Shown here: one piece after another, positions 13,625 to 59,044 of the stretch
Layout of the letters: every line of letters begins with the position of its first letter
Numbering within the stretch: the first letter of the stretch is position 1
Virus genome (UHGV): UHGV-1493261
Source: a virus
Strand: one strand, 5' to 3'
DNA: 64,000 bases
Program-made: the position numbers and the translations under genes
Notes under the pieces: generated by a model
The model's database searches: none
The model's input: only the letters and a program-made list of their open reading frames with translations
What the model was told of the DNA's origin: nothing

Positions 13625-15013
13625 TTAAACCTTCTGTGCTTGGCCTTTCTCAATCGCCTGAGGAGTAGTGGTGGAAGCAGTTGTCTGATTGGTCTGAGGT
13701 GGAAGCACCTGCTCCAGCAAACTGTCCTTGGCAATCTCAGCGATGCACTGATAATCTTTGGTCAGGCGGGAAATCTTGTGACGCACTTTGGTCACGATAT
13801 AGTGGCCTGTCGATAGCTTACTTAACTCTGCCAGGTTTTCGTTCTTCTTAGGACGGTTGGACTGGTCTTCGACGTAGAACACCTGACCGACGTTCAGGCG
13901 GTTATCACCAACGAGCAACACGCGCATCACAGTGCTGGCAAGACTGAAGTTGATAACACGACTAGCATAATCAATCTGCTCCGCTCCATCCGGCTGGGCT
14001 TCAATGTAACGGACGTTCTGACGATTGAATTCATCTGAGAACATCGGGAACGGATCAAGGTGAGCCGTCTCTGCAAACCACTCAGTATAGATGCGCTGTG
14101 TTGGGGTGACTGTCTTGGTCTCAAAGTCGTAGACGCGCTCGTTCACCGCCAGGACATCGCGGTAGTTTGCCATGAACTGGTCACGCGCCAGCTTCTTCTC
14201 TGCCTTGATGATCGTGCGCATAAAGCGCTCAGAGTTGAAGTTGTTATCCTGCATGAGCGGCGCGTCCTGAGGATCACGGAACAACTTGTTCTGTTGAGCT
14301 AGTTCCTGCTTCTCTTCTGCTGTCAATGACTGGCTACCCTGGTTGAACAACGTCGTCAGGCTCTTGAAGTGATAGCCATTGAAGTCTTCATAGAACACGA
14401 ATGGCATGAACAATTCGTCATAAGAACGGCTCGCCATATAATCAATAGATCGCAGCACAGGCCAGAGAGGGGTGGCGAACCGCTCTTGAATTCCATATGA
14501 CGGGTCGATGTCTTCGAACTTGGTGCGCGACTCCAGCTGATTGAAGATTGTCTTCGCCATGTCAGAATACGAACCGTCAAGACCGAGGGAGCATCGGATC
14601 ATGCTGTCCTTATAGGCATCGGTGGTCACCATGTGCAACCAGAATGCTTTCTTGGACGAGCTGTTGGACTCATCAGCTACGCGCCCAACACGCGCTACGC
14701 GCAGGGAGAGAGTGGTGTAATCCGAGGCCGCCGGACTCTTGAATGACACCACAACTTCTTCGCCACCCAAGATAGGCATTGTGTCAAGAATGTCCCACCC
14801 CTCTTTTATCAAGACATTGGCTGTAAGCGATGGAGATGACTTCCCTTCAAGACCCAGATCCTGGAAGACGTTGAACTCCTCAAACAACGCCGTCAGGTCA
14901 TATGGCGTTGGTGATCCGCCCTGGGGTGTATGAGGGAGTATCGCCATATACTTCAGGTCAAATGTTGTTGACGGTGTTACAATACCGTCTTGGGTCTCTC
15001 TGTTTTCGATCAT
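13625..15013 (-). CDS. Putative baseplate/tail assembly protein
   Basis: 462-aa ORF in the minus-strand structural operon; no diagnostic motif recognised. Confidence 0.45.
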   Translation of the reverse strand: MIENRETQDGIVTPSTTFDLKYMAILPHTPQGGSPTPYDLTALFEEFNVFQDLGLEGKSSPSLTANVLIKEGWDILDTMPILGGEEVVVSFKSPAASDYTTLSLRVARVGRVADESNSSSKKAFWLHMVTTDAYKDSMIRCSLGLDGSYSDMAKTIFNQLESRTKFEDIDPSYGIQERFATPLWPVLRSIDYMASRSYDELFMPFVFYEDFNGYHFKSLTTLFNQGSQSLTAEEKQELAQQNKLFRDPQDAPLMQDNNFNSERFMRTIIKAEKKLARDQFMANYRDVLAVNERVYDFETKTVTPTQRIYTEWFAETAHLDPFPMFSDEFNRQNVRYIEAQPDGAEQIDYASRVINFSLASTVMRVLLVGDNRLNVGQVFYVEDQSNRPKKNENLAELSKLSTGHYIVTKVRHKISRLTKDYQCIAEIAKDSLLEQVLPPQTNQTTASTTTPQAIEKGQAQKV

Positions 15014-18659: not shown

Positions 18660-18728
18660 TTCCGGTTCCTCTTAATAAACGAAGGGAAGTATATACTCCC
18701 CCTTCTTCAATAACCGCTGAATCTTTAT

Positions 18729-22253: not shown

Positions 22254-22275
22254 GGGTCGAGGCGGTAATAATACC
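22254..22275 (+). terminator. Hairpin + T-run (plus-strand orientation)
   Basis: GGCGGTA-ATAA-TACCGCC followed by TTTTTCTTC on the plus strand, inside a minus-strand gene block. Confidence 0.35.
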
Positions 22276-22285
22276 GCCTTTTTCT

Positions 22286-23300: not shown

Positions 23301-23341
23301 AGCACAACCCTCCAGGTGAGGAGGGGCGAACCCCTCCGATG

Positions 23342-28189: not shown

Positions 28190-28387
28190 TTATTTCTTCA
28201 CACACCCCAAATAGGAGCAGAGTAAACCGACAACAGAAAATATAATGGCAAGAAGGTAACGAGTTACCTGCATTTGTGGTGTTGTAAGCAGGCCGATAAC
28301 GCTTTCGAGCGCCAGGAACAAACACACCCCAGCGACTACACCGAATTTGAACGAATTACGTTCTCTGTTAATTCTGAACTTGTACAT
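28190..28387 (-). CDS. Small two-TM membrane protein
   Basis: 65 aa with two hydrophobic helices and a basic C-terminus. Confidence 0.45.
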   Translation of the reverse strand: MYKFRINRERNSFKFGVVAGVCLFLALESVIGLLTTPQMQVTRYLLAIIFSVVGLLCSYLGCVKK

Positions 28388-28409: not shown

Positions 28410-28432
28410 TAGGGGAGGAAACTCCCCTGTAA
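28410..28432 (-). terminator. GNRA-tetraloop hairpin terminator
   Basis: GGGGAG-GAAA-CTCCCC; identical 17-mer to the one at 48901. Confidence 0.45.
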
Positions 28433-28436: not shown

Positions 28437-28937
28437 CTAGCCCAGAAACACTACTAAAGTCAAATTAGTGAGGGCGCTGCGACCTTCCCGCAGCATTTCA
28501 TGCGCAGATGCAAGGCGCTTGGGGTCATGCAACGTATCAGAGAACACGATGATGTTTGCTTTATCGATGTCCGTGCCCATGTAATGGGATATGGTTGTCG
28601 TGTGCTGTTTCTTGTCTACATCGGGCAATGATACATCCGCACCTGCTCGGGAGCGGAAGAAAGAATCGCGTTCACTAACGCTATGGAAGACACCCATGAT
28701 GTTGAGGTTGTTCTCTGTCTGGAAATCATAGGACAGAATCTTCTTCAGCGCGGCGGTGTGCCCAGTCTGGCGCAGCATGCGATAGTACAGTATGTTTCCA
28801 GGACAGGTGGGGTCCGTCACACCTCCCCTCGATTGGCGATCTTTCTGGATTTCATACGCATCCAGGATAAGTTGTTGGACCATTTCAATATGGGCAGTCA
28901 GGGAGATTTCGACTTTACGTTTGACCATGGATTTCAT
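28437..28937 (-). CDS. Hypothetical protein
   Basis: 166-aa ORF. Confidence 0.5.
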   Translation of the reverse strand: MKSMVKRKVEISLTAHIEMVQQLILDAYEIQKDRQSRGGVTDPTCPGNILYYRMLRQTGHTAALKKILSYDFQTENNLNIMGVFHSVSERDSFFRSRAGADVSLPDVDKKQHTTTISHYMGTDIDKANIIVFSDTLHDPKRLASAHEMLREGRSALTNLTLVVFLG

Positions 28938-29004: not shown

Positions 29005-29029
29005 AAAAAGAGGCCGGAGCCTCTTTTGT
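29005..29029 (-). terminator. Intrinsic terminator (bidirectional shape)
   Basis: AAAAAGAGGC-CGGA-GCCTCTTTTG; A-run and T-run flank the hairpin. Confidence 0.55.
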
Positions 29030-30928: not shown

Positions 30929-31152
30929 GTTTGGTTCTCCTATAGACTGTTACGTATTTACCACAGCAATTGCAACAGTATACGTGCATCGCGTATCCTT
31001 CGCCTGTGAAGTCGCAACCACCACAGCGACAGAACAATTTCACGAACTGTTGGTCATGAACTTCACGGGGAGGAAAGTTCTTGTGGGAGTATTCCCTGGT
31101 CTCGCCTTCGAACTGAAAGGAGGCCGGAGCCTCCTTGGTGGATGGGGTTTGG

Positions 31153-35582: not shown

Positions 35583-35606
35583 AAAAGCCCTCGGCTGAGG
35601 GCTTTG
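35583..35606 (-). terminator. Intrinsic terminator
   Basis: Minus strand AGCCCTC-AGCCG-AGGGCTTTTTC, downstream of gene 35613-35960. Confidence 0.55.
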
Positions 35607-36302: not shown

Positions 36303-36754
36303 TTCGTTTCCCCCTTGGCAGCATAGGACAGTGCCTGAACAATCATTACAGCCAGATCGATCGGCGAGTAGGTGCTGTTCAGATCTTCTCGAACACTCTG
36401 CTCGATTTCTTCATCAGACTGGACCACAGGACAGTTCTTCCCCTGGCGACGGCGTTCTGCGTTGATCATATCACGCAGGAGCAGATCGGTGAAGGAGTAC
36501 TCATCAAAGTTTTCCAGATAATTCTGAATCCCAGTGGATACAGGGGTTGGCTCCGGCTCCTGTGCCCCAGGATCTTTCAGGGCAGCAACAGTGGCATCAA
36601 TATCCCACAGAGGGTTCATCAGTAACAGAAGATTAACTGTTTCTCCTGACTCTGAAGTCGGGTTATTTCCCAGCACCTTGTAAAGATTCTTCAGGGTGCT
36701 GTCAAAGGTCAGAACGGTCTGCGCCAGTTCTTCATAAGTTGGTTTGGTAGTCAT
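36299..36754 (-). CDS. Hypothetical protein
   Basis: 151-aa ORF; overlapping stop/start. Confidence 0.5.
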   Translation of the reverse strand: MTTKPTYEELAQTVLTFDSTLKNLYKVLGNNPTSESGETVNLLLLMNPLWDIDATVAALKDPGAQEPEPTPVSTGIQNYLENFDEYSFTDLLLRDMINAERRRQGKNCPVVQSDEEIEQSVREDLNSTYSPIDLAVMIVQALSYAAKGETK

Positions 36755-37116
36755 CAGCGTTTGCTCCGGCGTTTGTTCTTCATCTTAGTGGCCTGACGTT
36801 TGTGAGCAGCGGCTCCACGCAGGCGTGTGGGTTCTTGATAGCGGCGGTCGGCATAGAACTCCCGCATATCACATTCAGTGTCTCGTTGTTTAAGTTTGGC
36901 AATCAGAGCCTTGGTGTCCGGCATCTGTTCTAACTCGTCACAGATGATCATGCGCTCACCAGGCTCATTCCGACGCTTCGGGATATCATCGGGAGTGATG
37001 TGCACAACCTCAACTCCTGGTAGCTTCTCTTCCAGTAGAACTTTGATCAACCGAGAACCCAGTCCGGCTCCAACAATCACAATCTTTCTTGGCTTGTCTG
37101 TCATGTTCTTGTCCAC
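36754..37116 (-). CDS. Hypothetical protein with N-terminal GxGxxG motif
   Basis: 120 aa; KIVIVGAGLGSRL; basic C-terminus. Confidence 0.45.
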   Translation of the reverse strand: MDKNMTDKPRKIVIVGAGLGSRLIKVLLEEKLPGVEVVHITPDDIPKRRNEPGERMIICDELEQMPDTKALIAKLKQRDTECDMREFYADRRYQEPTRLRGAAAHKRQATKMKNKRRSKR

Positions 37117-37117: not shown

Positions 37118-37155
37118 AAAAAGGGGATAGAGCAATAATACCCTATCCCCTTTTA
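37118..37155 (-). terminator. Intrinsic terminator (bidirectional shape)
   Basis: AAAAGGGGATAG-(13 nt loop)-CTATCCCCTTTT. Confidence 0.55.
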
Positions 37156-37166
37156 TTGAAGAACGA

Positions 37167-39503: not shown

Positions 39504-39606
39504 TTGGATTCTCCCATGACGATAACGGAAGCACCAAAAGCCGCTTCCATGTTGAGTAGAGACATATCTTCAATTCGTTGCATTGCCATGATGTATATTC
39601 TTGCAA

Positions 39607-39648
39607 AAAGAAAGGGGAACGGGCTAATAATAACCCATTCCCCTTTAT
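39607..39648 (-). terminator. Intrinsic terminator
   Basis: Minus strand GGGGAATGGG-(loop)-CCCGTTCCCC followed by TTTCTTTTT. Confidence 0.5.
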
Positions 39649-39671
39649 TGAAGGAAGCAACCCCAGTCAGA

Positions 39672-39875: not shown

Positions 39876-41111
39876 TCAGCGTTTCAAGAGTGCCATGAGG
39901 TTGACGCTGCTGGACTTCGGCTTGTCCTCAACCTTGCGCACAGGCATCTTCAGGTTCGTACATACCTCGGATGGTTCCCAGCGCGTACCCTTTTGCAGGT
40001 GCCAGATATGCAGAGGAACACCAGTCTCAAAGAACACAGGCATCTTCCACTTCTGGACGCCTGGAACGTGCCCTGCAGGAGCCTTTTCACATAACAGGGT
40101 ATCTGGCAGCCAGAGCGAACGGGCTTCCCAGAGCGCTGCGCAGGAGTATTCAGGCCAGACGCGTTCCATGTAGTCTATCTCATCCCAGGTACGCTCTGCG
40201 TCCCACCCGATGTAACGGGTATTCTTCAGTCGGAAGAATTTCTTCAGCCAACAAGCACCGGAGGTTTCAAAGTTCAGGCGGTTGATGAACGTCAGGTGCC
40301 CGAACTCAGCCACACAATCCTGGAACGCCTGCTCAAGGTCGGCCTCAAGGATGTCACACTCTTCATCCGTGATAGGACAACCGTTGATCTTTTTCTTCCC
40401 GTGCTTGGTCACCCAATCGTCACGGTTGGACAAGAACGCCGCACCGTTGCGGTTGGACTCGCTTCCATCACGATCACGCAGCATGAAGCCAGGGACGTCA
40501 ATGGTGTATTCGTTCCCGAAGACCATGTTCAGGGCTTCCAGGAAGTTCCAGGCGCTCAGGCGACCGAAGTATTTCCAGGACATCGCCGTGTCCCACAGCT
40601 GGGTGAATTGTTCTGTCTTATCGATGCACACCAACATCCCACGGAAAGCGTCATATTGAGTACGACCAGCCAGCCAGTCAATATAGGACTGAACACACGG
40701 AATCATCTTGGACTTGCGGTAGCGACAGTCAGTATCGAATCGCATGCGTTCAAAGTTCAGGTTGTACCAGTCTGAGAAGCGCTGCATCTCTTCCTTAGAC
40801 TGAGGCGGCACAGGGAACTCACTGTAGATAGTCCACGGCCCGACGGCGTTATAGCAACAACCCCACAGGAATGCCATCCAGATCTTGCGCTCGACTTTCT
40901 GTTCGAGGCTGATGCCTTCAGTGACTTCGATCGCATAGTCCATCAGACGCATCTGCTGGTTGTGCTCTTCTGTGTAGGACAGCGCCTCCACCCAAGCCTT
41001 GAGCAGGTACATGCGATTCTCAGGTTTACGGTAGTCAACAGCTAGGTCAATCGGGTACTTCCATTCAGTAGGAGGCGTATAGCCCGTCGGCATTTTAGAT
41101 AGATGCGTCAT
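39876..41111 (-). CDS. Hypothetical protein (candidate DNA-modification enzyme by neighbourhood)
   Basis: 411-aa ORF adjacent to a P-loop kinase; no motif recognised. Confidence 0.5.
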   Translation of the reverse strand: MTHLSKMPTGYTPPTEWKYPIDLAVDYRKPENRMYLLKAWVEALSYTEEHNQQMRLMDYAIEVTEGISLEQKVERKIWMAFLWGCCYNAVGPWTIYSEFPVPPQSKEEMQRFSDWYNLNFERMRFDTDCRYRKSKMIPCVQSYIDWLAGRTQYDAFRGMLVCIDKTEQFTQLWDTAMSWKYFGRLSAWNFLEALNMVFGNEYTIDVPGFMLRDRDGSESNRNGAAFLSNRDDWVTKHGKKKINGCPITDEECDILEADLEQAFQDCVAEFGHLTFINRLNFETSGACWLKKFFRLKNTRYIGWDAERTWDEIDYMERVWPEYSCAALWEARSLWLPDTLLCEKAPAGHVPGVQKWKMPVFFETGVPLHIWHLQKGTRWEPSEVCTNLKMPVRKVEDKPKSSSVNLMALLKR

Positions 41112-41586
41112 CTTTCGCTTCCTCTTCAGGAGCCAGCTGAATGTCTTCTGGTTTCACGAACCCCATCGGACGTTCCCACATATCGATAAAGCGACGGTCA
41201 GCGGTCACGAACCACAGACGGGCTGCAGTGTGGGTCTTACTCGAGATGAACATCTGAGCATTCGTCTGGGTACGGAACGGAGCAGCCTGCAACCACTTGC
41301 CGAAGTCTTTGGACGACGGGTTGGCGTTCAGCTGGAACTGAGGGATGACGCAGTTCTTTTCAGGAATCAGGCGCACGGCAGTAATGTGCTTGGCGTTTCC
41401 GGTGTAGTCAATCGCAACAGCCACAGCATCGCGAGGGATTTGAATTTTCATTTTGGTTCCTTGAATATTTTGTAACCAGCAGCGCCGATAGACATCACCG
41501 CGCCAATACAGTACATCACAGTCACGTTCAACTTCTCTGAGGTTGTTAAGTCCAGAGGGGTGAAATGATAAGCTAGGGCAGTACAC
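41095..41586 (-). CDS. Hypothetical protein
   Basis: 163-aa ORF. Confidence 0.5.
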   Translation of the reverse strand: MYCPSLSFHPSGLNNLREVERDCDVLYWRGDVYRRCWLQNIQGTKMKIQIPRDAVAVAIDYTGNAKHITAVRLIPEKNCVIPQFQLNANPSSKDFGKWLQAAPFRTQTNAQMFISSKTHTAARLWFVTADRRFIDMWERPMGFVKPEDIQLAPEEEAKDDASI

Positions 41587-41647
41587 ATTGAAACGGCTGC
41601 CATAACCAGACCAATGAACAACAGATAATTAGACAACCGTTTCATGA

Positions 41648-42565
41648 TCACCCCTTCTTCATCAGGTCAAGGAGAGAGCGCGACGCTGCCTTCGTTGCTT
41701 CTGGCTGGGCGCTCGCCTTGGTTTTAGTTTTGGATGCCTTCTGTGGCTTCTCAGGCACTCTGTGCGCCAAAGGATCCTGGCCGCCGATTTCACGAGTCAT
41801 CGGATTGGTTTCACAGTAGGCGTAAAAGTCTTTGGTGTCCATGTTAACTTCACGCAGTTCGGACCGTATCTGATGACAAATCGCATTACCCACAACCCAC
41901 AGCGGGGCGTCGTATGGGAGCACCGCCAACTCGGACTGCTGTTTGGTCGTGAACTCCTGGGTGTTGGTCTCTGGCGCTTTATACAGGATATCCTGTCCGC
42001 TGTAATCATCAACAGCCACAGTGAAGCCCAGCGCCAGCATTTCGGCCTTCGACTTCTCAAACTCCTTGGAGTAAGATTCGTTGCGCGACCAGCCGGAGTT
42101 CCCTGCTTCTTTACCAGAGCGACCACGGATACGAGCATCGTACTGATAGCGGTCGGGGTACGCAAAGTACAGCAGCGCCAATGATTCAATCGGATAGTTC
42201 TTGAACATCCATTCAGGACGCCATTTGTCCGATAGCATGAGGGGTTCTCCATCACACACCAGAGTGTAACCCTGAACCAACCAGCACTTGATTAGATCAC
42301 GAGCAATATCGCCTGAGCCTGTAGCAGCATGGATTGCATCCATTGAAGTCCAGGAAGCCAGGCCGGATTTGTTAGACACGGTGTACTGTCCAACGAAGAT
42401 TAACTTCAGCTCTCCGAACTTCAAGCCAAACGGGCGAGTCTTGTCACCAACGGTGTAGGTCAGTTCGGTAGGCTCCAGCTTAGTGCGCAGCCATTCGATG
42501 AACTGGACAACACGGGTGCCCTTACCCGTACCGCTGGTTCCTTTCACTACGATAATTTTTGCCAT
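41648..42565 (-). CDS. P-loop kinase (candidate 5-hydroxymethyl-dU DNA kinase)
   Basis: 305 aa. Walker A GTSGTGKGT at the N-terminus; Lys-rich C-terminal tail. Confidence 0.5.
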   Translation of the reverse strand: MAKIIVVKGTSGTGKGTRVVQFIEWLRTKLEPTELTYTVGDKTRPFGLKFGELKLIFVGQYTVSNKSGLASWTSMDAIHAATGSGDIARDLIKCWLVQGYTLVCDGEPLMLSDKWRPEWMFKNYPIESLALLYFAYPDRYQYDARIRGRSGKEAGNSGWSRNESYSKEFEKSKAEMLALGFTVAVDDYSGQDILYKAPETNTQEFTTKQQSELAVLPYDAPLWVVGNAICHQIRSELREVNMDTKDFYAYCETNPMTREIGGQDPLAHRVPEKPQKASKTKTKASAQPEATKAASRSLLDLMKKG

Positions 42566-42870
42566 TACACAGCATCCTCAATACGCCAGCTCACGCCGCC
42601 CAGCCAAGGTGCCCAGAACACAGCAACCTGTGGGCGGCCATTCTCTTCAAACTTAACTTTATACTGGTCGTCGAAGTTATAGAAGATTTCATCTGCTTCA
42701 GAGCGCTGGCCGATCTTCACCAGTACATCATGAAGAGCCTTGGCTGCACCGATAGGAGTTGGAGTCTCCTGCTGACGAATGAAGTTGTTCACATAGATAA
42801 TCACACCATCCATGTCGCTATCACCGGAATGCTTGTCTGGGGTTTCCCCAAACTTGGATTGTTCTTGCAC
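42565..42870 (-). CDS. Hypothetical protein
   Basis: 101-aa ORF; overlapping stop/start. Confidence 0.5.
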   Translation of the reverse strand: MQEQSKFGETPDKHSGDSDMDGVIIYVNNFIRQQETPTPIGAAKALHDVLVKIGQRSEADEIFYNFDDQYKVKFEENGRPQVAVFWAPWLGGVSWRIEDAV

Positions 42871-42879
42871 GATGTCCTC

Positions 42880-43659
42880 CTATCGGACGTATTGATAATG
42901 ACTAATCAGGCGGTTTACCACTTCGACAATATTGCGGTTCAGGAAGTCGAAGTGGTTCTGGCCTTCTACTGGTTTAATATAAAGCATATCTTCCGAATTC
43001 GAAAGATCCAGTTTTTCATAATTGCCCTGAGGAACAAAGATGACAAAGATGTTGTTCAGGCCACACGGCTCGACATACTTCGGATTGTCATCAATCAGGA
43101 CATCGCCAGCCAGCAGATGCTTTTCGTCGGTGCTGACAAACCCGTTGAAGATACCAGGGAACTTATCATAGACAAACTGACGCTTGCTGCGCTCGTGTTC
43201 CGGCTCGCACTTCGACACCGCGATGAATTCAACATTGTCGAAATCTTCAAGCAAGATCTCCTTCAGATTCACCAGGAACTCGTAAGCGCCGGGGAGCGGG
43301 TTCATCTTGGCGTACAGGTCAGGGCGACGCCACCAATCCATAGGATCGTTACCGCTTGGCACACGTTGTTTGTGCATCCCCAATTGGACTTCATGGTATA
43401 GCCACGCCGGATGCGCACGTTCACGCATCAGAATAGCCAGGTCGCCAGCATGGGACATATAACACTCTTTGGTGATCGGCTGGAACTGGTATGACTTATG
43501 TTCCCCCGTAGCGATAGCAGCGGCGGCGATGTTCTCTTCGTTGAACCACTGCACCCAAGGGGAGAGGCTGTCGACCAACGTCAGGTCAACATCCACGAGG
43601 ACGCGATACAGGCCACCGACCTTTGATTTCATATCATAGATACAAACCAGGTTGTTCAT
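42880..43659 (-). CDS. HAD-superfamily 5'(3')-deoxyribonucleotidase-like protein
   Basis: 259 aa; N-terminal LVDVDLTLVDS resembles HAD motif I (D-x-D-x-T). Confidence 0.45.
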   Translation of the reverse strand: MNNLVCIYDMKSKVGGLYRVLVDVDLTLVDSLSPWVQWFNEENIAAAAIATGEHKSYQFQPITKECYMSHAGDLAILMRERAHPAWLYHEVQLGMHKQRVPSGNDPMDWWRRPDLYAKMNPLPGAYEFLVNLKEILLEDFDNVEFIAVSKCEPEHERSKRQFVYDKFPGIFNGFVSTDEKHLLAGDVLIDDNPKYVEPCGLNNIFVIFVPQGNYEKLDLSNSEDMLYIKPVEGQNHFDFLNRNIVEVVNRLISHYQYVR

Positions 43660-43997
43660 TTGTCTTCCTCAACTTTATCGTAGCCTGTAGCAACACACTG
43701 TTCTTCGGTACAATCTGCATACAGAACGACGGAGGCCTGCTTCACGTAGGTGGTGCAGTGGTAAGTTTCGTCTTCCTGGATGGAATCGTCATAGTTGCAG
43801 ACAGTTTGGAGCGGACCCGGAGTAGTGTTGTCCAGTGCTGCATGCGCCTTGATGGTGTCTTCCATCTTGGACACGGCCTGCTCATTGGTGAACGTCGGCG
43901 CGTCAAGGTCTACAGTAGACGCAACGTCCAGAAGGGTGGAACACGCAGTGGTAGAGAAAGCCAGAGCACACACCAGAAGAATCTTATTGAGTTTCAT
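43656..43997 (-). CDS. Putative lipoprotein
   Basis: Start at MKLNKILL with AGGTGA RBS. Signal peptide ILLVCALAFSTTAC with a lipobox-like Cys, followed by 4 further Cys. Confidence 0.5.
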   Translation of the reverse strand: MKLNKILLVCALAFSTTACSTLLDVASTVDLDAPTFTNEQAVSKMEDTIKAHAALDNTTPGPLQTVCNYDDSIQEDETYHCTTYVKQASVVLYADCTEEQCVATGYDKVEEDK

Positions 43998-44026
43998 TTC
44001 AATCACCTGTTTGTCAAAGGGTTAAC

Positions 44027-44052
44027 AGGGGGAATTATATCCCCCTTTGGTT
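44027..44052 (-). terminator. Hairpin / putative terminator
   Basis: AGGGGGA-ATTATA-TCCCCCT with a T-rich flank; sits between the polymerase stop and the lipoprotein start. Confidence 0.4.
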
Positions 44053-44059
44053 TATTGAA

Positions 44060-45641
44060 TCAACCTTTCTTCTTTTGCATCATGGCAAGAAGGTTCACAC
44101 GGCGCTTGTGTGACCAGCCGACCACGTCGAGGATAGACTGAATCGGATCAATGAAGGACTTCTCAAAGGCCGCCTGATAATCCACCCATTTGCCCAGACC
44201 AAGCTCCTCAGGGAAGAACTCAGGATATGCGAAGTAATTCTGGCCGAATGGGTTGCCCGGCTTCAACAACACCATCTGTACCTTATCACCAGACTCGATC
44301 ATCGGTAGACCCAGATCTTCGTTCTTCTCAACCAGACGGTTGTAACCCACACAAGCCTTGGCAGCAAAATGAGCACCAGAGATGAACGATCCGTCAGCAG
44401 CCACACACTTCTCTATGTCGGACACGCCTGACGCCTTGGCGATATCGTCTACAGAGAGTTTCATGTACTCCTCTTTGTACTGGGAGATGAGCGTCTGCAC
44501 TTCCTCTTCGGTGCCGAGTAGGATCTTCTCATAGCACTTAACAAGACGCTCACGACACCATTCCGGCGTGGTGGACTTGCGGGCTTCCAGACCTTTGAAC
44601 TTGATCTTCGGCTTCTCGTACTTGATACCCTCACTGTCGTACACGGCCATGGCATACATCTTCTTGGCTCGCCAGACAGCGGCTGACGCAATGACCTCAC
44701 GCTCCCATACCATGCGCTGTTCAAATCCGTTCATGGTGTTACACAGAAGCTGTGCCCACTCATTGGTCTTCGGCTGGTAGTTGTCTTTGATCCATTGGTC
44801 GATATTATCAACCATAGCATGATGGTCAGTAACATCAGGCCACAACTGCTTGACAAGACGCTCAATGCAGATGTAGTTGGAGTCGGTATCCCCTGCGATG
44901 ACGAAGTCCTGGCCTGTTGTACCACACAGCTTGTTCAGATAGTCATCAGTGTAACGCTTGTTCCACTTGTTGATCAGCTGACCGGATGTGGTGATGGCTT
45001 CGGCAATGTTGAGGTTGAAGTACTCTTTGAACCAGACGTTCGAGATAGCGCCATAACCTGCGTTCATCAAGATCTTCAGACCTTGCTGTAGGGTGTCTTG
45101 AGCAACACCCAGATCTTCCCACTTCTTCATCACTTCGGTCAGGGCATCAAGATCAATGTTCTTGTGCTCTTCATACCACTCTGGGTCATAGTAGCGAGAC
45201 TTCATGGCAGACTCAAGATGGAAGTCGCCCTTCGACATCTCTTTACACCAGCCAGCCCACTGCTCATACTTCAGACCCTTGGCCTTCTCTACTTTACGGT
45301 CGCTGTAGATACCACGCATGATTTCAGACAGGAACGACATCTTCTCGTTGCTGAAGAATTGAACGTTCGGCGTGAACGACACGTTGTAGCGGCGCAGGGT
45401 TTCAAAGTGGAACTCACCCAGGGCAACCAACTCATCAACAACCTGCAGGCGTTCGTCAACCGCACGCAACAGCTTGTCGTGAAGGGCTTTCATCAACCGA
45501 CGTTTGTGCATCGGCGTTGCCATGTTATTCATCTGAGCAGCCAGCTCTTCACACATAGCCTCAATAATCTCACGGCGCTGGTGTTTGTCGCCAACGATAG
45601 TCTCTGGACCGAGGTTGTACTGCTGAATGATGTGTGGATAT
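44060..45641 (-). CDS. DNA polymerase (family B, T4 gp43-like), exon 2
   Basis: Begins YPHIIQQYNLGPETI (completes motif A; T4 SLYPSIIRQVNISPETI). Motif B KILMNAGYG; motif C VIAGDTDS. The first 16 codons of the ORF-track ORF are assigned to the intron. Confidence 0.8.
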
Positions 45642-46824
45642 CGCTTGTGTTCAGGGATGCTCGCTATTTCATCCCCCGTGTTCGTCATTCAGTTTACCGA
45701 ACACTGCTGTATGTCACCATACAGGCCAGACTATATCACAATCTCCAGAACTGTCTAGAGATTCTCTCCATTTCGAGGCGCTTGCCCCTACTCTACTCGC
45801 TTCAGATCAGACGCTTAGTCGTCGGTCTTGCTTTCGATAGTCGTTGAACCTTGTCACCCACTACTTCAAGGAAATCATCTGGGTTTAACCCAGCGTAACC
45901 AAAGAGTCGTTTGAAGTTTCTTGCCAACTTGCCCCACTCTACAGTCTTCTTACCTAAATCCTGTTGTGTCAAGCAATGAGCGGTTATTTCTTCCCCACTC
46001 ATTCTGGCAAACATTTCCTTCCTTTTCTCTAAAGAATCTTTAAATTTCTTCTTCGCTTTCGGATCGGCGTTTGGTCCCACCTGGCCTTTCTTTGCGCCTA
46101 TTATACATTTCAACTCACCACTCAAATATCTCGGGTCTTGCGTTGAAACTTTGATAACACTACCATCCAGGAGTCTTACGGGGACAGTGCCTTTGTGAAC
46201 AAGACTGGAATTGGCTTTAATTCTTTCAGCTGTTTCTTTATCAGCGCCGAAATAAGCCTTACCCTTCATATCTGCCCTTTTAACACCCTTCTTAGATTTG
46301 GATATCTTTCTTCTGACATCTTCCCTCTTCGAAGGATTCCCTTCTCCCGTCAACATTTCAACATTCTTTCTTCTCAATTCCTCACTTAGTTCCCCGTTAT
46401 GGGATTTCATCATGAAGTAGGCGAAGAACGCTGATTTATCTTCTGGTAATGCTTCATGCAATAGGCGATGAGCCTCCACATGATCTTTGTACAACAGGTT
46501 TACGATATTCCATTCTTCTTTAGAGAACTCAGGATAATGCGCCTGGGGCAGTATATGATGGTGCTCACTGTATTCATCACCATCATAACTGTGTTCCTCA
46601 CAGAACTTCAAATATTCTTCTATCTTAGATTCTTCAATTACCAAATCATTTCGATAGAACAGACTCTTGATTTCCTTCATGACCTTACTCCTTCACCGTG
46701 GTTACAGAGTATTTAGGTCTTCGTGGCCGACCTTGGCTGCTGATTATCTCTAAAGAGACTTCCCAGCAATTAAGAGAGTTATTCGATGGTTGTCGCCAAC
46801 CAAAGCCCCTATGCTGCTAACTTA
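45642..46824 (-). mobile_element. Group I intron (inferred) in the DNA polymerase gene, carrying an HNH homing endonuclease
   Basis: Exon 1 stops 5 codons after DLNSL; exon 2 resumes at YPHII. Boundaries placed so the 5' exon ends in U and the intron ends in G, giving DLNSLYPHII. GATATAGTC (S-element-like) lies near the 3' end. Confidence 0.6.
45802..46680 (-). CDS. HNH homing endonuclease (intron-encoded)
   Basis: 292 aa. HNH motif HHILPQAHYPEF...NIVNLLYKDHVEAH; Lys-rich C-terminal DNA-binding region. Confidence 0.75.
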   Translation of the reverse strand: MKEIKSLFYRNDLVIEESKIEEYLKFCEEHSYDGDEYSEHHHILPQAHYPEFSKEEWNIVNLLYKDHVEAHRLLHEALPEDKSAFFAYFMMKSHNGELSEELRRKNVEMLTGEGNPSKREDVRRKISKSKKGVKRADMKGKAYFGADKETAERIKANSSLVHKGTVPVRLLDGSVIKVSTQDPRYLSGELKCIIGAKKGQVGPNADPKAKKKFKDSLEKRKEMFARMSGEEITAHCLTQQDLGKKTVEWGKLARNFKRLFGYAGLNPDDFLEVVGDKVQRLSKARPTTKRLI

Positions 46825-48242
46825 AGGGAGTTCAAATCTTCCGAGAAGACCCAGAAGTAGATTCCTGGTGTCACATCCATGACGTATGCACCCTCAAAGT
46901 CGGTCGGACCATCGTATACACGCTGGATCTTAGGCACTATCCCCTTCTCATACAGGCGATAGTAGCACATGGCCAGCCACGGAGCCACAGTGCCCAGACC
47001 GTCTTCATAGTTGGACTTGGTGCGGTACGCAAGGACGAACATCAGCTGGAGCAGACGCAGCTTCTGTTCAAGTCGCCATACCAGCTTAACGTCTTTGATA
47101 CCATATCGGGTGTGTTTGCAGTAGTCGTTGAAGTACAGATCAAAGAGCGACTTGCTCTCACTGTAGTCCATCTTCTTCTCACCCAGCTCACAATACGCAA
47201 TCCAGTCAAGAGAGTAGCGTTCACGGGTGGTGTACGTGTGTTTCTTGTAGATCTGCATATAATCGAGCATAGGGCAACCCACGAACTGATACGTCGTGAT
47301 GTCACCCTTCTTATCACGGATGATGCGCTTCTTAATGATGCCCCAAGGACTGAGGCGCGACGTTTCAGCCTCACCCAGAACCTGATTCATGCGCTCAACA
47401 AGATAAGGGCTATCAAACGTCTCAATGTTCCAGCCAGTCCATCCGTCGAACTGACGCTGTGACCAGAAGTCTAGGAACGAGCGCAGCAGATCTTGTTCGG
47501 TGGTGAACTCCTGATAAACAACCTCAAGGCCGCCGATCTCTTTGTCTTCGGTGTCATATGCGAACTTATTGCGGTCTTTGGCACAGGGCATACCCCAGAC
47601 CATGAACTTATTGGTCGCCATATCCTGAAGCTGGATCAGGGTAATGGGGAACGCCGCATTCATGTCTTGGGTGATCTTGCCGTTGCTGTCAATGATAGGG
47701 AACTGATCAGTGACGTTGTTGCTGATGAAAGAACCAGGGAAGTGCTCACGGACAAAATCATGGTTGGCCAGCACTTGTTTATGGAAGCGGCGAATGCGCG
47801 CCTCATTCCCTTTGAACGTCTGCTGCTCAATGGTTGGGTGAGGGAATGGACCTTTGGTCATCTTTCCGTCTTTCCACCCGGCGGAGAACACTTCGATATC
47901 GAGGTTAGCAATATGGATGTTGGTGTAATCCGGCTCAATCTTTCCAGGAAAGCTATGGGCGATGAACTGGTATGCATAATCGGTCTGCCCGTAAATGGCA
48001 GCACCCTGGACTTCCTTGTACTCTTCAAGATAGTTGTCAGCGTCACGCATGGAAGGGAACTGCTTGGCTACCAGGGGTTCATTGAGCAGGCCGACCTTTT
48101 CAACATTTGAATAGTCAGCCGTGGGTAAATAGAGAGTAGGTTCGAATTTCTTTTTCAACAGACGGCGATTACCCATGTCATCTGCAATTCGAATCAACAG
48201 GTCATTGCCCCTGCGGGCAACGTTCGTATAGAAAACGGTCAT
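46825..48242 (-). CDS. DNA polymerase (family B, T4 gp43-like), exon 1
   Basis: N-terminal 3'-5' exonuclease domain (Exo I ANLDIEV); ends in the first half of motif A (DLNSL). Confidence 0.8.
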
Positions 48243-48321
48243 GTAATTCTCCAGGTTATCCGTGCCGTTAGCACGTGGGCATATTTAACCATAGAGCCAT
48301 TCATTGACCAAGGAGTTTATT

Positions 48322-48894
48322 ATGGCAATCCCCCTCGTTGGTATGATCCCAGGGGTGCTCAAGCAACTCTGGAACCTCGGGACTGATTTGATCCAATATA
48401 AGCGGGAAGTTGTACAGGCCAAACACGACGTCAAGCTGGAGGCCATCAAGTCCTCCTCAGATTGGGAGCTGTCTAAGATTACCGAAGTCGGCGGATCTTG
48501 GAAAGACGAATTCTGGACTATCGTGTTGGCCATACCCGCCATCCTCGTCATGACTGCTCCGGTTGTGGAACTGATTCTGTTCCCTGGTGAGTATCATAAA
48601 GGGGATTTCATCAAAGCAGTAATCGGTGGCCTTCAGGCACTAGATACCGCGCCTGAATGGTATACCTATTCGTTATTGACAGCAATTAGTGCATCATTCG
48701 GTATCAAAGGCTACAACCACTACAAAAGCAACAGGCGAAAAGCCCAAGCTATGGATGCTCTCAAGCAATTTGGGGTTCGGGTCGTACAGAAAGATCCCAC
48801 TGTTGTTACTCAGTCGGGTTCTCCCGATCTTGAGTCTGCTCCCCCAGCTGGGTCTACTGCGACCTCTGGTGCGTGGCCTGATCTGAAGAAATAA
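48322..48894 (+). CDS. Hypothetical membrane protein
   Basis: Start at ATG after AAGGAG (ORF-track TTG at 48304 not used); hydrophobic segments. Confidence 0.5.
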   Translation: MAIPLVGMIPGVLKQLWNLGTDLIQYKREVVQAKHDVKLEAIKSSSDWELSKITEVGGSWKDEFWTIVLAIPAILVMTAPVVELILFPGEYHKGDFIKAVIGGLQALDTAPEWYTYSLLTAISASFGIKGYNHYKSNRRKAQAMDALKQFGVRVVQKDPTVVTQSGSPDLESAPPAGSTATSGAWPDLKK

Positions 48895-48900
48895 GTTCAA

Positions 48901-48925
48901 GGGGAGGAAACTCCCCTTTCTTTTG
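48901..48925 (+). terminator. Intrinsic terminator (GNRA tetraloop)
   Basis: GGGGAG-GAAA-CTCCCC followed by TTTCTTTT, right after the stop at 48894. Confidence 0.65.
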
Positions 48926-48936
48926 GTGTTTAGGGA

Positions 48937-49149
48937 ATGAAAGTGGTAAACAAGAGATTGCTCGTCACCCAAGGCGGGGCGACGATAGTGCGCGGAAGGA
49001 TCTATGAACAGACACAGCTGGGTGATCACAAGACGCGCCTGACTGTCAAGGCTCCCGATGGTGGTTGGCCGACAAAGGTGATTGTCCCTGACGGTCTCAT
49101 AGAACGAGGGACGGCAACGTACAAGGGAGCAGAGTTCAAAATTTATTAA
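48937..49149 (+). CDS. Hypothetical protein
   Basis: 70-aa ORF. Confidence 0.45.
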   Translation: MKVVNKRLLVTQGGATIVRGRIYEQTQLGDHKTRLTVKAPDGGWPTKVIVPDGLIERGTATYKGAEFKIY

Positions 49150-49244
49150 AATATTTATTGAATAAAGTTTACTTCTTCAATAACTGGCGTATACTTCTAA
49201 TTGTAGTACGAACAAACAACAATCTGAAGAGAAGGAAATACATC

Positions 49245-49802
49245 ATGGCAATCGAAATTATCGCTCAATCCAAATCTGGCAAAACTGTAATGTACGGTAC
49301 TGAAGAAGGCCGCACAATCACCACTCTGGTCACAATTGACGGTTCCAACCCAGTGAAAGGTGGTCGCTACCTGGTTGAATACGGTTCACGCCTGCTGATG
49401 GTAAGCAAAGTCGATGGTCGTGAAATCATGATTCCCCGCAAAGAGTACTTCGACTCACGCATTGAAGCCATGAACTTCTTCCTTTTCCAGGAACGTCACG
49501 AACTGTTCGTTGAAGCGAAAGACGCAGGCCTGGACGATGCGACTGCCGAGCTGATTGCCGAAGGTAAAATGTCCCTCGAGGAAGCTCTGGGTGACATGGA
49601 TTGCGAAGCCGAAGCCCATTACATCGAATATTCCGCTTATCAGAATGAATGTGAAGACGATCTTGAAGATGACGGCTTCGACCCTGACCTTCACGGTGGC
49701 GAGGATGACAATACTCCTTCACTGGAAGTGATCATGGCAGGCGGTCAGGCCGCCTGGGAGTGGCAGAACGAAAAGAACGCCTGGCTGGATTCCCGCCTTT
49801 AA
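49245..49802 (+). CDS. Hypothetical protein with acidic C-terminus
   Basis: Start at internal ATG (MAIEIIAQSK) with AGAAGGAAA RBS; promoter-like TTTACT-16 nt-TATACT upstream. Confidence 0.5.
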   Translation: MAIEIIAQSKSGKTVMYGTEEGRTITTLVTIDGSNPVKGGRYLVEYGSRLLMVSKVDGREIMIPRKEYFDSRIEAMNFFLFQERHELFVEAKDAGLDDATAELIAEGKMSLEEALGDMDCEAEAHYIEYSAYQNECEDDLEDDGFDPDLHGGEDDNTPSLEVIMAGGQAAWEWQNEKNAWLDSRL

Positions 49803-49816
49803 TGTGAAGAAATAAA

Positions 49817-49842
49817 GAAAGGGGCTTAACGCCCCCTTTCTT
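49817..49842. terminator. Bidirectional intrinsic terminator between convergent genes
   Basis: AAAGGGGC-TTAAC-GCCCCCTTTCTT between the plus-strand stop (49802) and minus-strand stop (49841). Confidence 0.6.
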
Positions 49843-50299: not shown

Positions 50300-50444
50300 G
50301 TTAGGTTCCTCAGTGGGTTAGCCATATGGGGTATTTAGGCTTCCCGCTTGGCAAAGCCTGGTTTGTACAGGACGCATATCGGAAATGTTGGAGGAAGGTT
50401 TTCATAGATACCCCACACTGGTTGTATGGGGTATTTAGGAGGGA

Positions 50445-51659: not shown

Positions 51660-51708
51660 TGGCTTATCATAGTGTATCTACAGGAGTATAGAAAAGGAGA
51701 ATCTCGGC

Positions 51709-52371: not shown

Positions 52372-52471
52372 CGGTGTATCCTCAAATCAATGGATAGGGG
52401 TTTAACGGTTAAATTTTAAACCATTCTATCTCATTGAACAAATACAGAATGGGAAGGATGGACAAAAGAAA

Positions 52472-52500
52472 GCCGGATAAGGACATCCGGCTATACCACA
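52472..52500 (-). terminator. Intrinsic terminator
   Basis: Minus strand AGCCGGAT-GTCCTT-ATCCGGCTTTCTTTTG, downstream of the tRNA island. Confidence 0.55.
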
Positions 52501-53100: not shown

Positions 53101-53216
53101 ATTTGGTGGGTGTTACTATCGTCGTCTTCGGATTCCGTTCGGCTATTGGACGTCGCTTCAAGAGCTTGTCGGTCGCGTACTTCTTGCCTATTCACTTTCG
53201 TTCACACCCATAATTC

Positions 53217-59042: not shown

Positions 59043-59044
59043 AA

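Follow-up and report, generated by a model that had tools for sequence, protein, structure and literature searches.

G-run hairpins of a ViI-like Ackermannviridae phage, including an identical 17-mer at two sites, as probable transcript punctuation

Results

The repeated 17-mer and its setting

The DNA analysed here (the window, a stretch of 64,000 nt) is part of an Ackermannviridae phage genome of the ViI-like type, approximately 97-99% identical to Escherichia phage AV101. At 28412-28428 it carries a short hairpin which begins 8 nt past the stop codon of a histone-like gene (28437-28937) and ends 24 nt ahead of the AUG of a gene encoding a 65-aa membrane protein (28190-28387). The corresponding 17-mer, GGGGAGGAAACTCCCCT, had been reported from two sites, and the proposed genome-wide count of it, run on the window, confirmed exactly two exact copies (shuffles predict 0.01 matches), at 48901-48917 and at 28412-28428, the latter having been placed one base off at 28411-28427; a further copy with two mismatches lies at 4398-4414. 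The broader pattern GGGGAG-N3-8-CTCCCC occurs three times in the window, versus 0.02 expected, and five times in the whole AV101 genome, versus approximately 0.05 expected.

The minus strand carries most of the genes from 11.6 to 48.2 kb, and so the hairpin set has to be read strand by strand. The ten hairpins of the initial annotation, with an alternative fold at one of them and three additional hairpins, are as follows.

28412-28428, minus strand: the focal hairpin, mRNA AGGGGAG-UUUC-CUCCCCU
48899-48926, plus strand: predicted classical intrinsic terminator, AAGGGGAG-GAAA-CUCCCCUU then UCUUUUGG
29006-29027, minus strand: predicted terminator, AAAAGAGGC-UCCG-GCCUCUUUU then UCAUUU
31117-31136, minus strand: predicted terminator after rIIB, AAGGAGGC-UCCG-GCCUCCUU then UCAGUUCG
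37119-37154, minus strand: predicted long terminator with a 16-bp stem, AAAAGGGGAUAGGGUA-UUAU-UGCUCUAUCCCCUUUU then UCG
39611-39646, minus strand: apparent paralogue of the 37119 hairpin, AAAGGGGAAUGGGUUA-UUAU-UAGCCCGUUCCCCUUU then CUUUUU
49815-49842, both strands: predicted bidirectional terminator, AAGAAAGGGG-loop-CCCCUUUCUU, with U-tracts in both directions
4397-4414, plus strand: hairpin without a U-tract, GGGGGAG-GAGA-CUCCCCC
23320-23337, minus strand: intercistronic hairpin without a U-tract, GGAGGGG-UUCG-CCCCUCC
23308-23325, minus strand: alternative hairpin, CCCUCC-UCACCU-GGAGGG
44027-44046, minus strand: hairpin without a U-tract, AGGGGGA-UAUAAU-UCCCCCU
22259-22280, minus strand: a broadly similar intergenic hairpin, AAGGCGGUA-UUAU-UACCGCCUC, with TATTAT at its apex
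35584-35605, minus strand: terminator-like hairpin, AAAGCCCUC-AGCC-GAGGGCUUU then UUC
63428-63447, plus strand: predicted terminator after a gene for a 1046-aa tail-fibre-like protein, AACCCCGC-UUUG-GCGGGGUU then CUUAUU

All ten hairpins listed in the initial annotation are present, and each is a stable, GC-rich structure (sense-strand folds of about -14 to -26.5 kcal/mol), but stems, extents or strand needed correction at several. The two long hairpins, given as 37122-37151 and 39614-39643, are real and extend to 37119-37154 and 39611-39646; that given as 23309-23327 exists, but it competes with a stronger hairpin, 23320-23337, with which it is mutually exclusive. Stems of the form GGGG(A/G)...CCCC, polyG followed by polyC, are found at 4397, 28412, 37119, 39611, 44027, 48901 and 49815, but those at 29009 (AGAGGC, our 29006-29027 hairpin) and 31117 (GGAGGC) do not fit the GGGG...CCCC description first applied to them. 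Because their flanking genes lie on the minus strand, the loops at 28412, 23320, 29009 and 31117 have to be complemented; they had been read on the wrong strand, and their mRNA loops are UUUC, UUCG, UCCG and UCCG. Of the ten, only 4397 (GAGA) and 48901 (GAAA) thus have a GNRA loop in the mRNA, a type at first taken to characterise the set. T-runs, said to follow most of the hairpins, follow six of the ten on the transcribed strand (one of them, at 31117, degraded) and are lacking at 4397, 23320, 28412 and 44027: the 8 nt past the stem hold five to seven U at 48901, at 49815-49842 in both directions, and at 37119, 39611, 29006 and the degraded 31117, and one to four U at the other four sites. 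The hairpins begin 4-28 nt past stop codons, as terminators would, and the description of them as gene-end terminators is borne out in their placement and in that about half resemble classical intrinsic terminators; as a set, however, they are functionally mixed. The practical lesson is that a hairpin loop has to be interpreted from the strand that is transcribed.

Hairpins followed by a U-tract

The second copy of the 17-mer lies in the hairpin at 48899-48926, which begins 4 nt past the stop of a 190-aa gene (48322-48894) and whose U-tract (tail UUUCUUUU, seven of eight U) ends 10 nt ahead of the next start codon (48937); it is probably an attenuator within an operon. Its orthologues are identical in AV101 and SKML-39, Vi01 has GGGAG-GAAA-CUCCC, and a Klebsiella phage has GGGGC-UUCG-GCCCC with the same U-tract. 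At 49815-49842 the hairpin lies between the convergent genes 49245-49802 (plus strand) and 49841-50299 (minus strand), with folding z scores of -3.9 and -4.2.

The hairpin at 37119 folds at -25.5 kcal/mol in the sense direction (z = -6.6) and at -17.8 kcal/mol in the antisense direction, the latter being weaker because two G.U pairs form on the minus strand only; its tail on the transcribed strand is UUUUUCGU, and a TTCAATAAA box lies 11 nt upstream of the TATTAT at its apex. This TTCAATAAA-N11-TATTAT spacing recurs at 39611 (sense -26.5 versus antisense -18.0 kcal/mol), which has the tail UUUCUUUU. The 29006 hairpin (sense -16.5 versus antisense -12.9 kcal/mol), with the tail UUUUUCAU on the transcribed strand, has a U-tract that overlaps a promoter-like TTTTCA-N16-TATAAT (29008-28981) upstream of the histone-like gene. 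G.U pairs are restricted to the sense strand at 37119, 39611 and 29006. At 31117 the U-tract is degraded compared with relatives (UUUCAGUU); in the orthologues of LIMEstone1, SKML-39, CBA120, Maynard and the Klebsiella phage the loop is UUCG and the tail is of the UUUUCUUU type, and some relatives have a G.U pair that exists on the sense strand only. In the records of relatives, the orthologue of the 31117 hairpin (LIMEstone1, Maynard) and that of the 29009 hairpin (Maynard) are annotated as terminators, the LIMEstone1 paper having listed 31 rho-independent terminators predicted by TransTermHP or Mfold (PMC3296691).

Two of the additional hairpins widen the set: that at 35584-35605, 7 nt past a stop codon and upstream of rIIA, has a C-first stem, so that the set is not confined to GGGG...CCCC, and that at 63428 belongs to a second recurrent stem family, AACCCCGC, with three copies in AV101.

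Hairpins without a U-tract

The tail of the focal hairpin, UAUUUCCC, is weakly U-rich, with four U in eight and no run exceeding three, which does not amount to a U-tract, and the CBA120 and Maynard orthologues have the tail AUUUGAAU; the site would be a weak terminator at best. Its position and stem are kept in AV101, LIMEstone1, SKML-39, CBA120 and Maynard while the loops differ, and the Klebsiella phage has AGGGGC-UUUG-GCCCCU; the loops across orthologues are UUUC, UUUCC, GAAA, AGAA and UUUG. Judged from this comparison, the loop is evidently flipped relative to SKML-39 and Maynard, via reverse complementation within the palindrome, and because of this flip the more stable fold in this lineage is that of the plus (antisense) strand (-19.9 versus -16.3 kcal/mol for the sense strand). 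That the plus-strand 17-mers of the two sites are identical is in part accidental; convergence on a favoured hairpin, together with a loop flip, can produce an exact short repeat.

The hairpin at 4397-4414 (-17 kcal/mol, z = -3.4) begins 8 nt past a uvsX-like stop (4387-4389) and, as the initial annotation had it, lies inside a coding region, namely codons 11-16 of a conserved 109-aa ORF (4367-4696). All 18 of its 18 nt are identical in CBA120, third codon positions included, whereas the flanking codons differ. The hairpin at 23320-23337 begins 4 nt past the stop of a topoisomerase subunit gene and its pairing is kept in relatives, CBA120 and Maynard having GGAGGG-UGAAUU-CCCUCC and the Klebsiella phage, with compensatory changes, GGGGGC-CAAAA-GCCCCC. 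The alternative hairpin at 23308-23325 reuses the 3′ arm of the former and pairs with the Shine-Dalgarno sequence of the gene starting at 23300; this element, earlier placed in a 5′ leader, does cover the Shine-Dalgarno sequence of that gene. Its orthologue in the AV101 census folds at -13.1 kcal/mol and it is poorly conserved beyond the closest relatives. The hairpin at 44027-44046 begins 13 nt past the DNA polymerase stop and its loop is the -10 hexamer of a conserved promoter-like TTGATT-N18-TATAAT (44063-44034). Unlike the loops elsewhere, which vary, this one is the same in AV101, SKML-39, Vi01 and the Klebsiella phage, as are the stem and the upstream TTGATTCAATAA.

Placement, conservation and recurrence

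We took a census of hairpins in AV101 over bases 1896-146799 (bases 1-1895 and 146800-156759 lay outside it). Perfect-stem hairpins with dG of -12 or lower have an approximately 17-fold higher density in intergenic DNA than in coding DNA, and the hairpins (n = 44) lie at a median of 13 nt past the upstream stop and 32 nt ahead of the next start. The four-base sense loops (n = 29) include eight UNCG (six UUCG, two UCCG) and five GNRA. Identical 6-mer stems are shared by 22 pairs versus 2.0 expected, under a position-independent null that ignores G-run and C-run classes. The five GGGGAG copies of AV101 have unrelated flanking sequences and the loops GAAA, UUUC, ACAA, GAGA and GAGA; when seven hairpin regions were aligned, mean column identity was 47%, and only 37119 and 39611 look paralogous.

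Hairpin sites keep their position from Aglimvirinae to Kuttervirus and the Klebsiella phage. What orthologous sites retain is the pairing and not the loop: at the third GGGGAG site (site E) the loop is ACAA, UUUC or AACC, and the Klebsiella phage swaps whole stems, to GGGGC/GCCCC or, at 23320, GGGGGC/GCCCCC. Compensatory changes are clear by eye but, on these alignments, not statistically strong; RNAalifold on six sequences gave one compensatory pair per site, with indels shifting the Klebsiella and LIMEstone1 rows out of register. Beyond this family, more than 120 unrelated viral contigs of IMG/VR contain the exact 17-mer, with unrelated flanks, and 65 contain its arm-swapped counterpart, both being raw counts uncalibrated against non-hairpin 17-mers; at least five T occur in the next 8 nt in 59 of 94 copies of the 17-mer.

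A scan of the entire window at Rfam gathering thresholds returned five tRNAs only, with no known RNA family at any hairpin. Pfam searches of the ORFs flanking both 17-mer sites, and of the ORF within the polymerase insert, gave DUF7231 (36754-37116) as the sole informative match. The literature that we searched contained no transcriptomic, Term-seq or transcript 3′-end data for Ackermannviridae.

Promoter-like motifs and genome rearrangement

Promoter-like boxes are found at a subset of the sites only: at 29006 (TTTTCA-16-TATAAT), at 44027 (TTGATT-18-TATAAT), and at 37119 and 39611 (TATTAT with the TTCAATAAA box). The arrangement TTCAATAAA-N11-TATWAT has four exact occurrences in the window versus 0.21 expected even allowing two mismatches, and in three of the four the spacer is a G-rich hairpin arm. 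TATWAT boxes lie at 37135, 39627, 44034 and 56097. It is conserved in Agtrevirus-like, Kuttervirus and Klebsiella phages, and in CBA120 a UUCG hairpin stands immediately ahead of the TTCAATAAA box. The end of the -10 box lies approximately 30-40 nt upstream of a start codon in most instances checked, and 18 and 123 nt upstream at two window sites. Neither 17-mer site has a promoter-like match, there being 24 and 18 nt left to the next start codon.

Eight indels distinguish the window from AV101. One, a difference in gene content, begins 28 nt past the hairpin at 39611, and another is a deletion within an ORF near 37119; the rest are insertions of the homing-endonuclease type. We found no convincing association of indel breakpoints with hairpins in this comparison. 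Two candidate flanking motifs were also dropped: TGAAGAA, seen ahead of several hairpins, is frequent in coding sequence, and ATTTGAA, which follows some AV101 and CBA120 hairpins, is not enriched in the window.

Discussion

We propose that these sites are, in all likelihood, hairpins of the ordinary kind that punctuates the transcripts of a T4-like, ViI-type (Ackermannviridae) phage, acting at the RNA level on the transcribed strand. Their structures, strand, position, conservation and convergent recurrence are observed; from these we infer termination and RNA stabilisation. The U-tract hairpins at 48899-48926, 49815-49842, 37119-37154, 39611-39646, 29006-29027 and, weakly, 31117-31136 would serve as intrinsic terminators or attenuators for host RNA polymerase. 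Those at 28412-28428, 4397-4414 and 23320-23337, lying within operons at 4-8 nt past a stop, are most likely weak attenuators or barriers to 3′-to-5′ exonucleases that would set the relative amounts of upstream and downstream cistrons. The hairpin at 44027-44046 encloses the -10 box of a conserved promoter-like site in its loop. The likeness of the sequences probably reflects convergent design, with a purine-rich G-run 5′ arm, a C-rich 3′ arm leading into the U-tract and stable GNRA or UNCG four-base loops, and with such a design a shared trans-acting factor is unnecessary; convergence accounts for the clustering of stems only qualitatively. Any T4-like phage would be expected to carry intrinsic terminators and intercistronic stem-loops, and the finding of a hairpin family as first stated matters little, the orthologues of two sites being already annotated as terminators in relatives.

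The initial annotation had suggested a common RNA-binding factor or processing signal. A dedicated RNA-binding protein or nuclease, recognising the GGGGAG/CUCCCC stem or a GNRA loop and so defining a regulon or a set of processing sites, would suit the recurrence of the stem (five per genome versus approximately 0.05 expected) and its retention at an orthologous site in phages ranging from Aglimvirinae to Kuttervirus. GGAG, which forms the core of RegB sites in T4 (PMC3014915), also lies within the stem. However, loops differ or flip between orthologues and two of five copies are non-GNRA on the mRNA, so that conserved recognition nucleotides are not seen; the GGAG is base-paired in the stem, and secondary structure protects against RegB (PMC3014915). 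In CBA120, Kutter et al. identified no translation/RNA-level orthologues other than those of RNase H, and by implication RegB is absent. The GGGGC stems at both 17-mer sites of the Klebsiella phage might have pointed to concerted evolution or a co-evolving factor, but its third site keeps GGGGGAG, on which ground we rejected the idea, there being no coordinated switch. RNase III requires stems longer than 6-8 bp. With loops varying freely, flanks unrelated, the 17-mer common in more than 120 unrelated contigs and the sites functionally mixed, we regard such a factor as very unlikely. Somewhat less improbable, though still doubtful, is translational control, in which the C/U-rich 3′ arm (CCUCC/CCCUCC, anti-Shine-Dalgarno-like) would pair with the Shine-Dalgarno sequence of the next gene while a terminating ribosome holds the 5′ arm, coupling or uncoupling the cistrons. 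At 23308-23337 two exclusive hairpins (-13.2 and -13.1 kcal/mol) do share CCCUCC, the second sequestering the GGAGGG Shine-Dalgarno sequence; a predicted fold at 28412 pairs AUUUCC with GGAGGU of the next gene; and hairpins beginning 4-8 nt past stops are inside the ribosome footprint. The alternative pairing is, however, weak or absent in Kuttervirus and the Klebsiella phage, and the flipped loop of SKML-39 and Maynard removes CCUCC at 28412, yet the site is kept.

We consider it extremely improbable that the sites are DNA-level palindromes, be they binding sites for a dimeric protein or cruciform/recombination signals, and not RNA elements: they are perfect short palindromes, identical on both strands, and the loop flip at 28412 indicates a DNA-level event such as template switching, but only the coding strand offers G.U pairs and U-tracts, placement past stop codons is tight and the loops are of RNA-stabilising classes. 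A possible, if unlikely, reading is that the hairpins are the stem-loop halves of promoter-plus-terminator cassettes like the PeSLs (promoter-early stem-loops) of other T4-like phages, in which recurrent stems and promoter boxes provide both regulation and short homologies for exchange. The promoter-like boxes that abut the 29006 hairpin and form the loop at 44027, the excess of TTCAATAAA-N11-TATWAT, mostly with a hairpin arm as its spacer, the CBA120 hairpin ahead of the box, the falling of stems into families and the gene-content difference just past 39611 all favour it. Against it, both 17-mer sites are without room for a promoter and are positionally conserved across genera, not mobile; the flanks of same-stem copies are unrelated (47% identity over the seven regions) versus PeSL conservation over approximately 100 bp; the AV101 deletion near 37119 is inside an ORF and not bounded by hairpins; and most other indels are homing-endonuclease insertions.

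Returning to transcript punctuation as our preferred reading, we would add only tentatively, thinking it rather unlikely, an Ackermannviridae-wide scheme comparable to PeSLs, which joins the recurrent G-run stems to a new promoter class with the TTCAATAAA box at about -30, 11 nt upstream of TATWAT. With a hairpin lying in the spacer or across the -10 box, upstream termination would be coupled to re-initiation. Early and middle promoters were not found in ViI-like phages, which lack MotA and AsiA, by Kutter et al. (2011); if the scheme is true, TTCAATAAA-N11-TATWAT could represent the promoters that were missed. The stem families, the -10-like apex hexamers and this arrangement could also aid transcription-unit annotation in Ackermannviridae.

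Comparison with known systems

The closest likeness to PeSLs, described in the T4-like phages RB49, phi1, PST and nt-1 (Arbiol et al. 2010, PMC2839356; Comeau et al. 2014, PMC4122927), is at 29006, 37119, 39611 and 44027, which share the look of intergenic polyG-polyC stem-loops upstream of, or overlapping, sigma70-like -35/-10 boxes near small ORFs of unknown function. Unlike PeSLs, the copies here show no conservation over approximately 100 bp and a promoter is lacking at the 17-mer sites; in place of a canonical -35 there is a TTCAATAAA box at about -30, and we found no evidence for mini-circles or hairpin-bounded exchange. REP/BIME elements are similarly intergenic palindromes able to shield upstream mRNA from 3′ exonucleases, with the same stem recurring within one genome, but they are imperfect palindromes of 35-40 nt, clustered, with a consensus that includes the flanks, whereas only stems of 6-7 bp are shared here; unrelated flanks and positionally conserved sites do not fit a mobile palindrome of the REP or MITE kind.

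With the lambdoid boxB/N system there is in common a short GC stem with a purine-rich GNRA-like loop, although this holds for 48901 and 4397 only. That system needs conserved loop bases and an adjacent boxA in a nut site near promoters, whereas here loops vary or flip and sites follow stop codons; we know of no N-like system in ViI-like phages. Extra-stable C(UUCG)G and GNRA tetraloop hairpins were reportedly first noted in T4 intercistronic regions, by Tuerk and colleagues in 1988, and UUCG is the commonest four-base loop of AV101 (6 of 29, with GNRA at 5 of 29), the rIIB terminator of relatives being a textbook C(UUCG)G hairpin; many loops here are nevertheless of neither type (UUUC, ACAA, UUAU, UAAU) and loop class is not conserved at orthologues. 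Finally, the sites resemble the intrinsic terminators of enterobacteria and their phages in the GC-rich stem with G-rich 5′ and C-rich 3′ arms, the short stable loop, the preceding A-tract, the following U-tract and the place past stops or between convergent genes; they differ in that four of the ten, the focal site included, have no proper U-tract, and in that the 4397 hairpin lies inside the first codons of an ORF.

Gene orientation and the hairpin sites

Over the 5 kb surrounding the finding, sequence identity to Escherichia phage AV101 (Ackermannviridae, Aglimvirinae) is 98.9%, and there are matches to some 270 further ViI-like phages, whose hosts are Salmonella, Klebsiella, Escherichia and Dickeya; the AV101 alignment spans nearly the entire window at 91-98.6% identity, with eight indels. 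When AV101 proteins are mapped onto the window, the plus strand carries the genes of 1-11.6 kb and of 48.3-49.8 kb, and the minus strand nearly all of those in 11.6-48.2 kb, an orientation that is essential to the reading of the hairpins. All ten hairpins listed in the initial annotation are present, folding at -14 to -26.5 kcal/mol, and on the transcribed strand they read as follows:

4397-4414, hairpin without a convincing U-tract, 8 nt past the uvsX-like stop
23320-23337, hairpin without a convincing U-tract, UUCG loop
28412-28428, minus, focal hairpin, without a convincing U-tract
29006-29027, minus, terminator with U-tract, UCCG loop
31117-31136, degraded terminator after rIIB, UCCG loop, U-tract degraded here and good in relatives
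37119-37154, minus, terminator with U-tract, 16-bp stem
39611-39646, minus, terminator with U-tract, 16-bp stem
44027-44046, hairpin without a convincing U-tract, its loop UAUAAU being the -10 hexamer of TTGATT-N18-TATAAT
48899-48926, plus, terminator with U-tract, GAAA loop, UUUCUUUU
49815-49842, bidirectional terminator with U-tract, convergent genes on either side

The extents of the two long hairpins (37119-37154 and 39611-39646) correct those first drawn, and the GGGG...CCCC description of the stems fails for 29009 (AGAGGC) and 31117 (GGAGGC). The 17-mer GGGGAGGAAACTCCCCT does occur exactly at two sites, 28412-28428 (one base from the coordinate first given) and 48901-48917, with a third copy bearing two mismatches at 4398-4414; shuffles give a chance expectation of 0.01 matches. 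For the wider pattern GGGGAG-N3-8-CTCCCC the window has three matches where 0.02 would be expected, and the AV101 genome has five.

Gene-content differences from AV101 adjoin the two long hairpins (36787-37081 and 39504-39582; 14269-14692 in the AV101 record): most of the DUF7231 ORF found at 36754-37116 in the window has been lost from AV101, and AV101 has two additional small genes directly 3′ of the 39611 hairpin, a place taken by 79 nt in the window. A 1.18-kb insertion (45641-46824) absent from AV101 divides the DNA polymerase gene into ORFs 46809-48242 and 44060-45688. The inserted 292-aa ORF (45802-46680, minus) has no Pfam match, Rfam finds no group I intron at the insertion, and relatives have ‘DNA polymerase (x2)’ and homing endonucleases annotated there.

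Structure of the hairpins in RNA

In mRNA the focal hairpin is AGGGGAG-UUUC-CUCCCCU, with the tail UAUUUCCC, and it is flanked by a histone-like gene and the gene of a 65-aa membrane protein. When loops are read strand-aware, the GNRA tetraloop ascribed to the family exists on mRNA only at 4397 and 48901, the focal loop being UUUC. A census of perfect stems (dG <= -12 kcal/mol) over 145 kb of AV101, with 192 annotated CDS, gave 3.85 hairpins per kb in intergenic sequence vs 0.23 per kb in coding sequence; the median distance is 13 nt from the preceding stop codon to the hairpin and 32 nt from the hairpin to the next start. Among the 29 four-base sense-strand loops, UUCG accounts for six, UCCG for two and GNRA for five. 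At 37119-37154, 39611-39646 and 29006, G.U pairs form on the coding strand only, and sense vs antisense folding is -25.5/-17.8, -26.5/-18.0 and -16.5/-12.9 kcal/mol respectively. Placement between genes, loop class and coding-strand G.U pairs are all evidence that these elements work at the level of RNA. The focal site is the exception in its folding, its antisense strand being the more stable (-19.9 vs -16.3 kcal/mol for sense) because the loop has been flipped within the palindrome.

The hairpin at 4397-4414 (-17 kcal/mol) lies within codons 11-16 (GGGDSP) of ORF 4367-4696, a conserved reading frame of 109 aa that overlaps the uvsX-like gene at the latter's end. Phage CBA120 has the identical 18 nt, synonymous positions included, but differs in adjacent codons, and this pattern suggests an RNA-structure constraint within coding sequence.

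At 23308-23337 (minus) two mutually exclusive hairpins of near-equal predicted stability have a CCCUCC segment in common; the GGAGGG Shine-Dalgarno of the gene starting at 23300 is free in one and sequestered in the other. The initially reported 23309-23327 is the alternative, sequestering form, and 23320-23337 the stronger. The pair could be a translational switch, but it is poorly conserved beyond the closest relatives.

Conservation among relatives

From Aglimvirinae to Kuttervirus the orthologue of 28412 retains the GGGGAG/CUCCCC stem and varies in its loop: UUUC in the window and AV101, UUUCC in LIMEstone1, GAAA in SKML-39 and Maynard, and AGAA in CBA120, the whole hairpin being AGGGGC-UUUG-GCCCCU in a Klebsiella phage. 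The four loop bases at 28418-28421 are the exact reverse complement of the SKML-39 (and Maynard) loop and are the sole difference from SKML-39, whose flanks are identical. This implies that the loop was inverted inside the palindrome and not altered by point mutations, template switching being the probable route; that the two 17-mers match on the plus strand is therefore in part an accident of the flip.

Other sites vary likewise. Orthologues of 48901 are GGGAG-GAAA-CUCCC in Vi01 and GGGGC-UUCG-GCCCC, with the U-tract unchanged, in the Klebsiella phage, where two compensatory changes make the 23320 orthologue GGGGGC-CAAAA-GCCCCC. Beyond the window lies a third GGGGAG site, with the loop ACAA in AV101; CBA120 has AACC there and the stem GGGGGA, whereas in the Klebsiella phage the loop is UUUC and the stem GGGGGAG. 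On this comparison pairing is under selection, loop identity is not, and stem identity is so only weakly. Counterparts of 31117 and 29009 are already marked as terminators in the LIMEstone1 and Maynard records; the LIMEstone1 paper counts 31 rho-independent terminators.

A shared factor or convergence

The shared stem had been taken to hint at a common RNA-binding factor, and stems do cluster: 48 AV101 hairpins yield 22 pairs with identical inner 6-mers against 2.0 expected from column shuffling, an excess overstated because this null is blind to G-first and C-first classes. The families include GGGGAG (five copies), GGGGTA (three), CCCCGC (three) and others such as GGCGGG and AGAGGC. The five GGGGAG copies have no flanking sequence in common and so are not parts of a larger repeat. 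In IMG/VR the exact 17-mer is present in at least 120 contigs of very diverse sizes and unrelated flanks, 59 of the 94 copies among the matches listed having at least five T in the 8 nt directly after it; the arm-swapped CTCCCC-GAAA-GGGGAG occurs in 65 contigs. Its recurrence, mostly with T-rich tails, speaks for convergence upon a terminator design that is favoured, in which a purine-only 5′ arm would be unable to mispair with itself and a C-rich 3′ arm would lead into the U-tract, with a stable tetraloop between. A lineage-specific factor is not needed, and neither a common RNA-binding factor nor GNRA recognition is supported, since loops vary, flanks are unrelated and the 17-mer recurs in unrelated contigs.

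A RegB-like nuclease acting at GGAG is unlikely; the GGAG is base-paired, structure protects against RegB, and Kutter et al. reported no function of this type in CBA120.

The reading of these sites as terminators holds for about half of them. Together they are most probably intrinsic terminators and intercistronic stabiliser hairpins, a known kind of element, and the observation is a real but ordinary one.

Promoter-like sequences and comparison with T4-like phages

Sigma70-like promoter matches in 40001-60000 number 41 vs 23.1 +/- 5.0 in shuffles, most densely at 53.4-56.8 kb (minus), where small ORFs run from the tRNA cluster to the baseplate genes; this stretch may be early or hyperplastic. 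The cluster (52710-53520, minus) holds five tRNAs (Ser-GCU, Tyr-GUA, Asn-GUU, Trp-CCA and Met-CAU), with a near-consensus TTGACA-N18-AATAAT directly upstream at 53552-53523. Hexamers resembling a -10 box (TATAAT, GATAAT, TATGAT, TATTAT, TATATA) also occur on the sense strand at the apices of many intergenic hairpins, at 44027-44046, 22259-22280, 37119-37154, 39611-39646 and 18682-18703 and in AV101 hairpins L001, L012 and L013.

For a subset of sites the closest named analogue is the promoter-early stem-loop (PeSL) of T4-like phages: 29006 adjoins TTTTCA-N16-TATAAT, and 44027-44046 holds a -10 box in a loop that, with the rest of the site, does not vary among four relatives belonging to three genera. 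Unlike PeSL, the 17-mer sites have no promoter and the copies lack conservation over ~100 bp; indel breakpoints relative to AV101 show no clear tie to the hairpins. PeSL membership is for these reasons not established.

The sole lead worth pursuing is TTCAATAAA-N11-TATWAT, often fused with hairpins; its interest lies in the early and middle promoters of ViI-like phages, which Kutter et al. could not find. Four exact copies lie on the minus strand (37135-37160, 39627-39652, 44034-44059 and 56097-56122), where 0.21 would be expected even at two mismatches, and the motif recurs in CBA120, Vi01, SKML-39, AV101 and the Klebsiella phage; after the CBA120 ligase gene a UUCG hairpin stands immediately ahead of it. 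For most of the copies checked in CBA120, Vi01 and the Klebsiella phage, the -10 box ends ~30-40 nt ahead of a start codon; in the window this is so for two of the four copies, the gap being 18 nt at 37135 and 123 nt at 39627. The motif may represent a promoter class not recognised before: its geometry, with one box near -30 and another at -10, is like that of T4 middle promoters, yet these phages are without MotA and AsiA.
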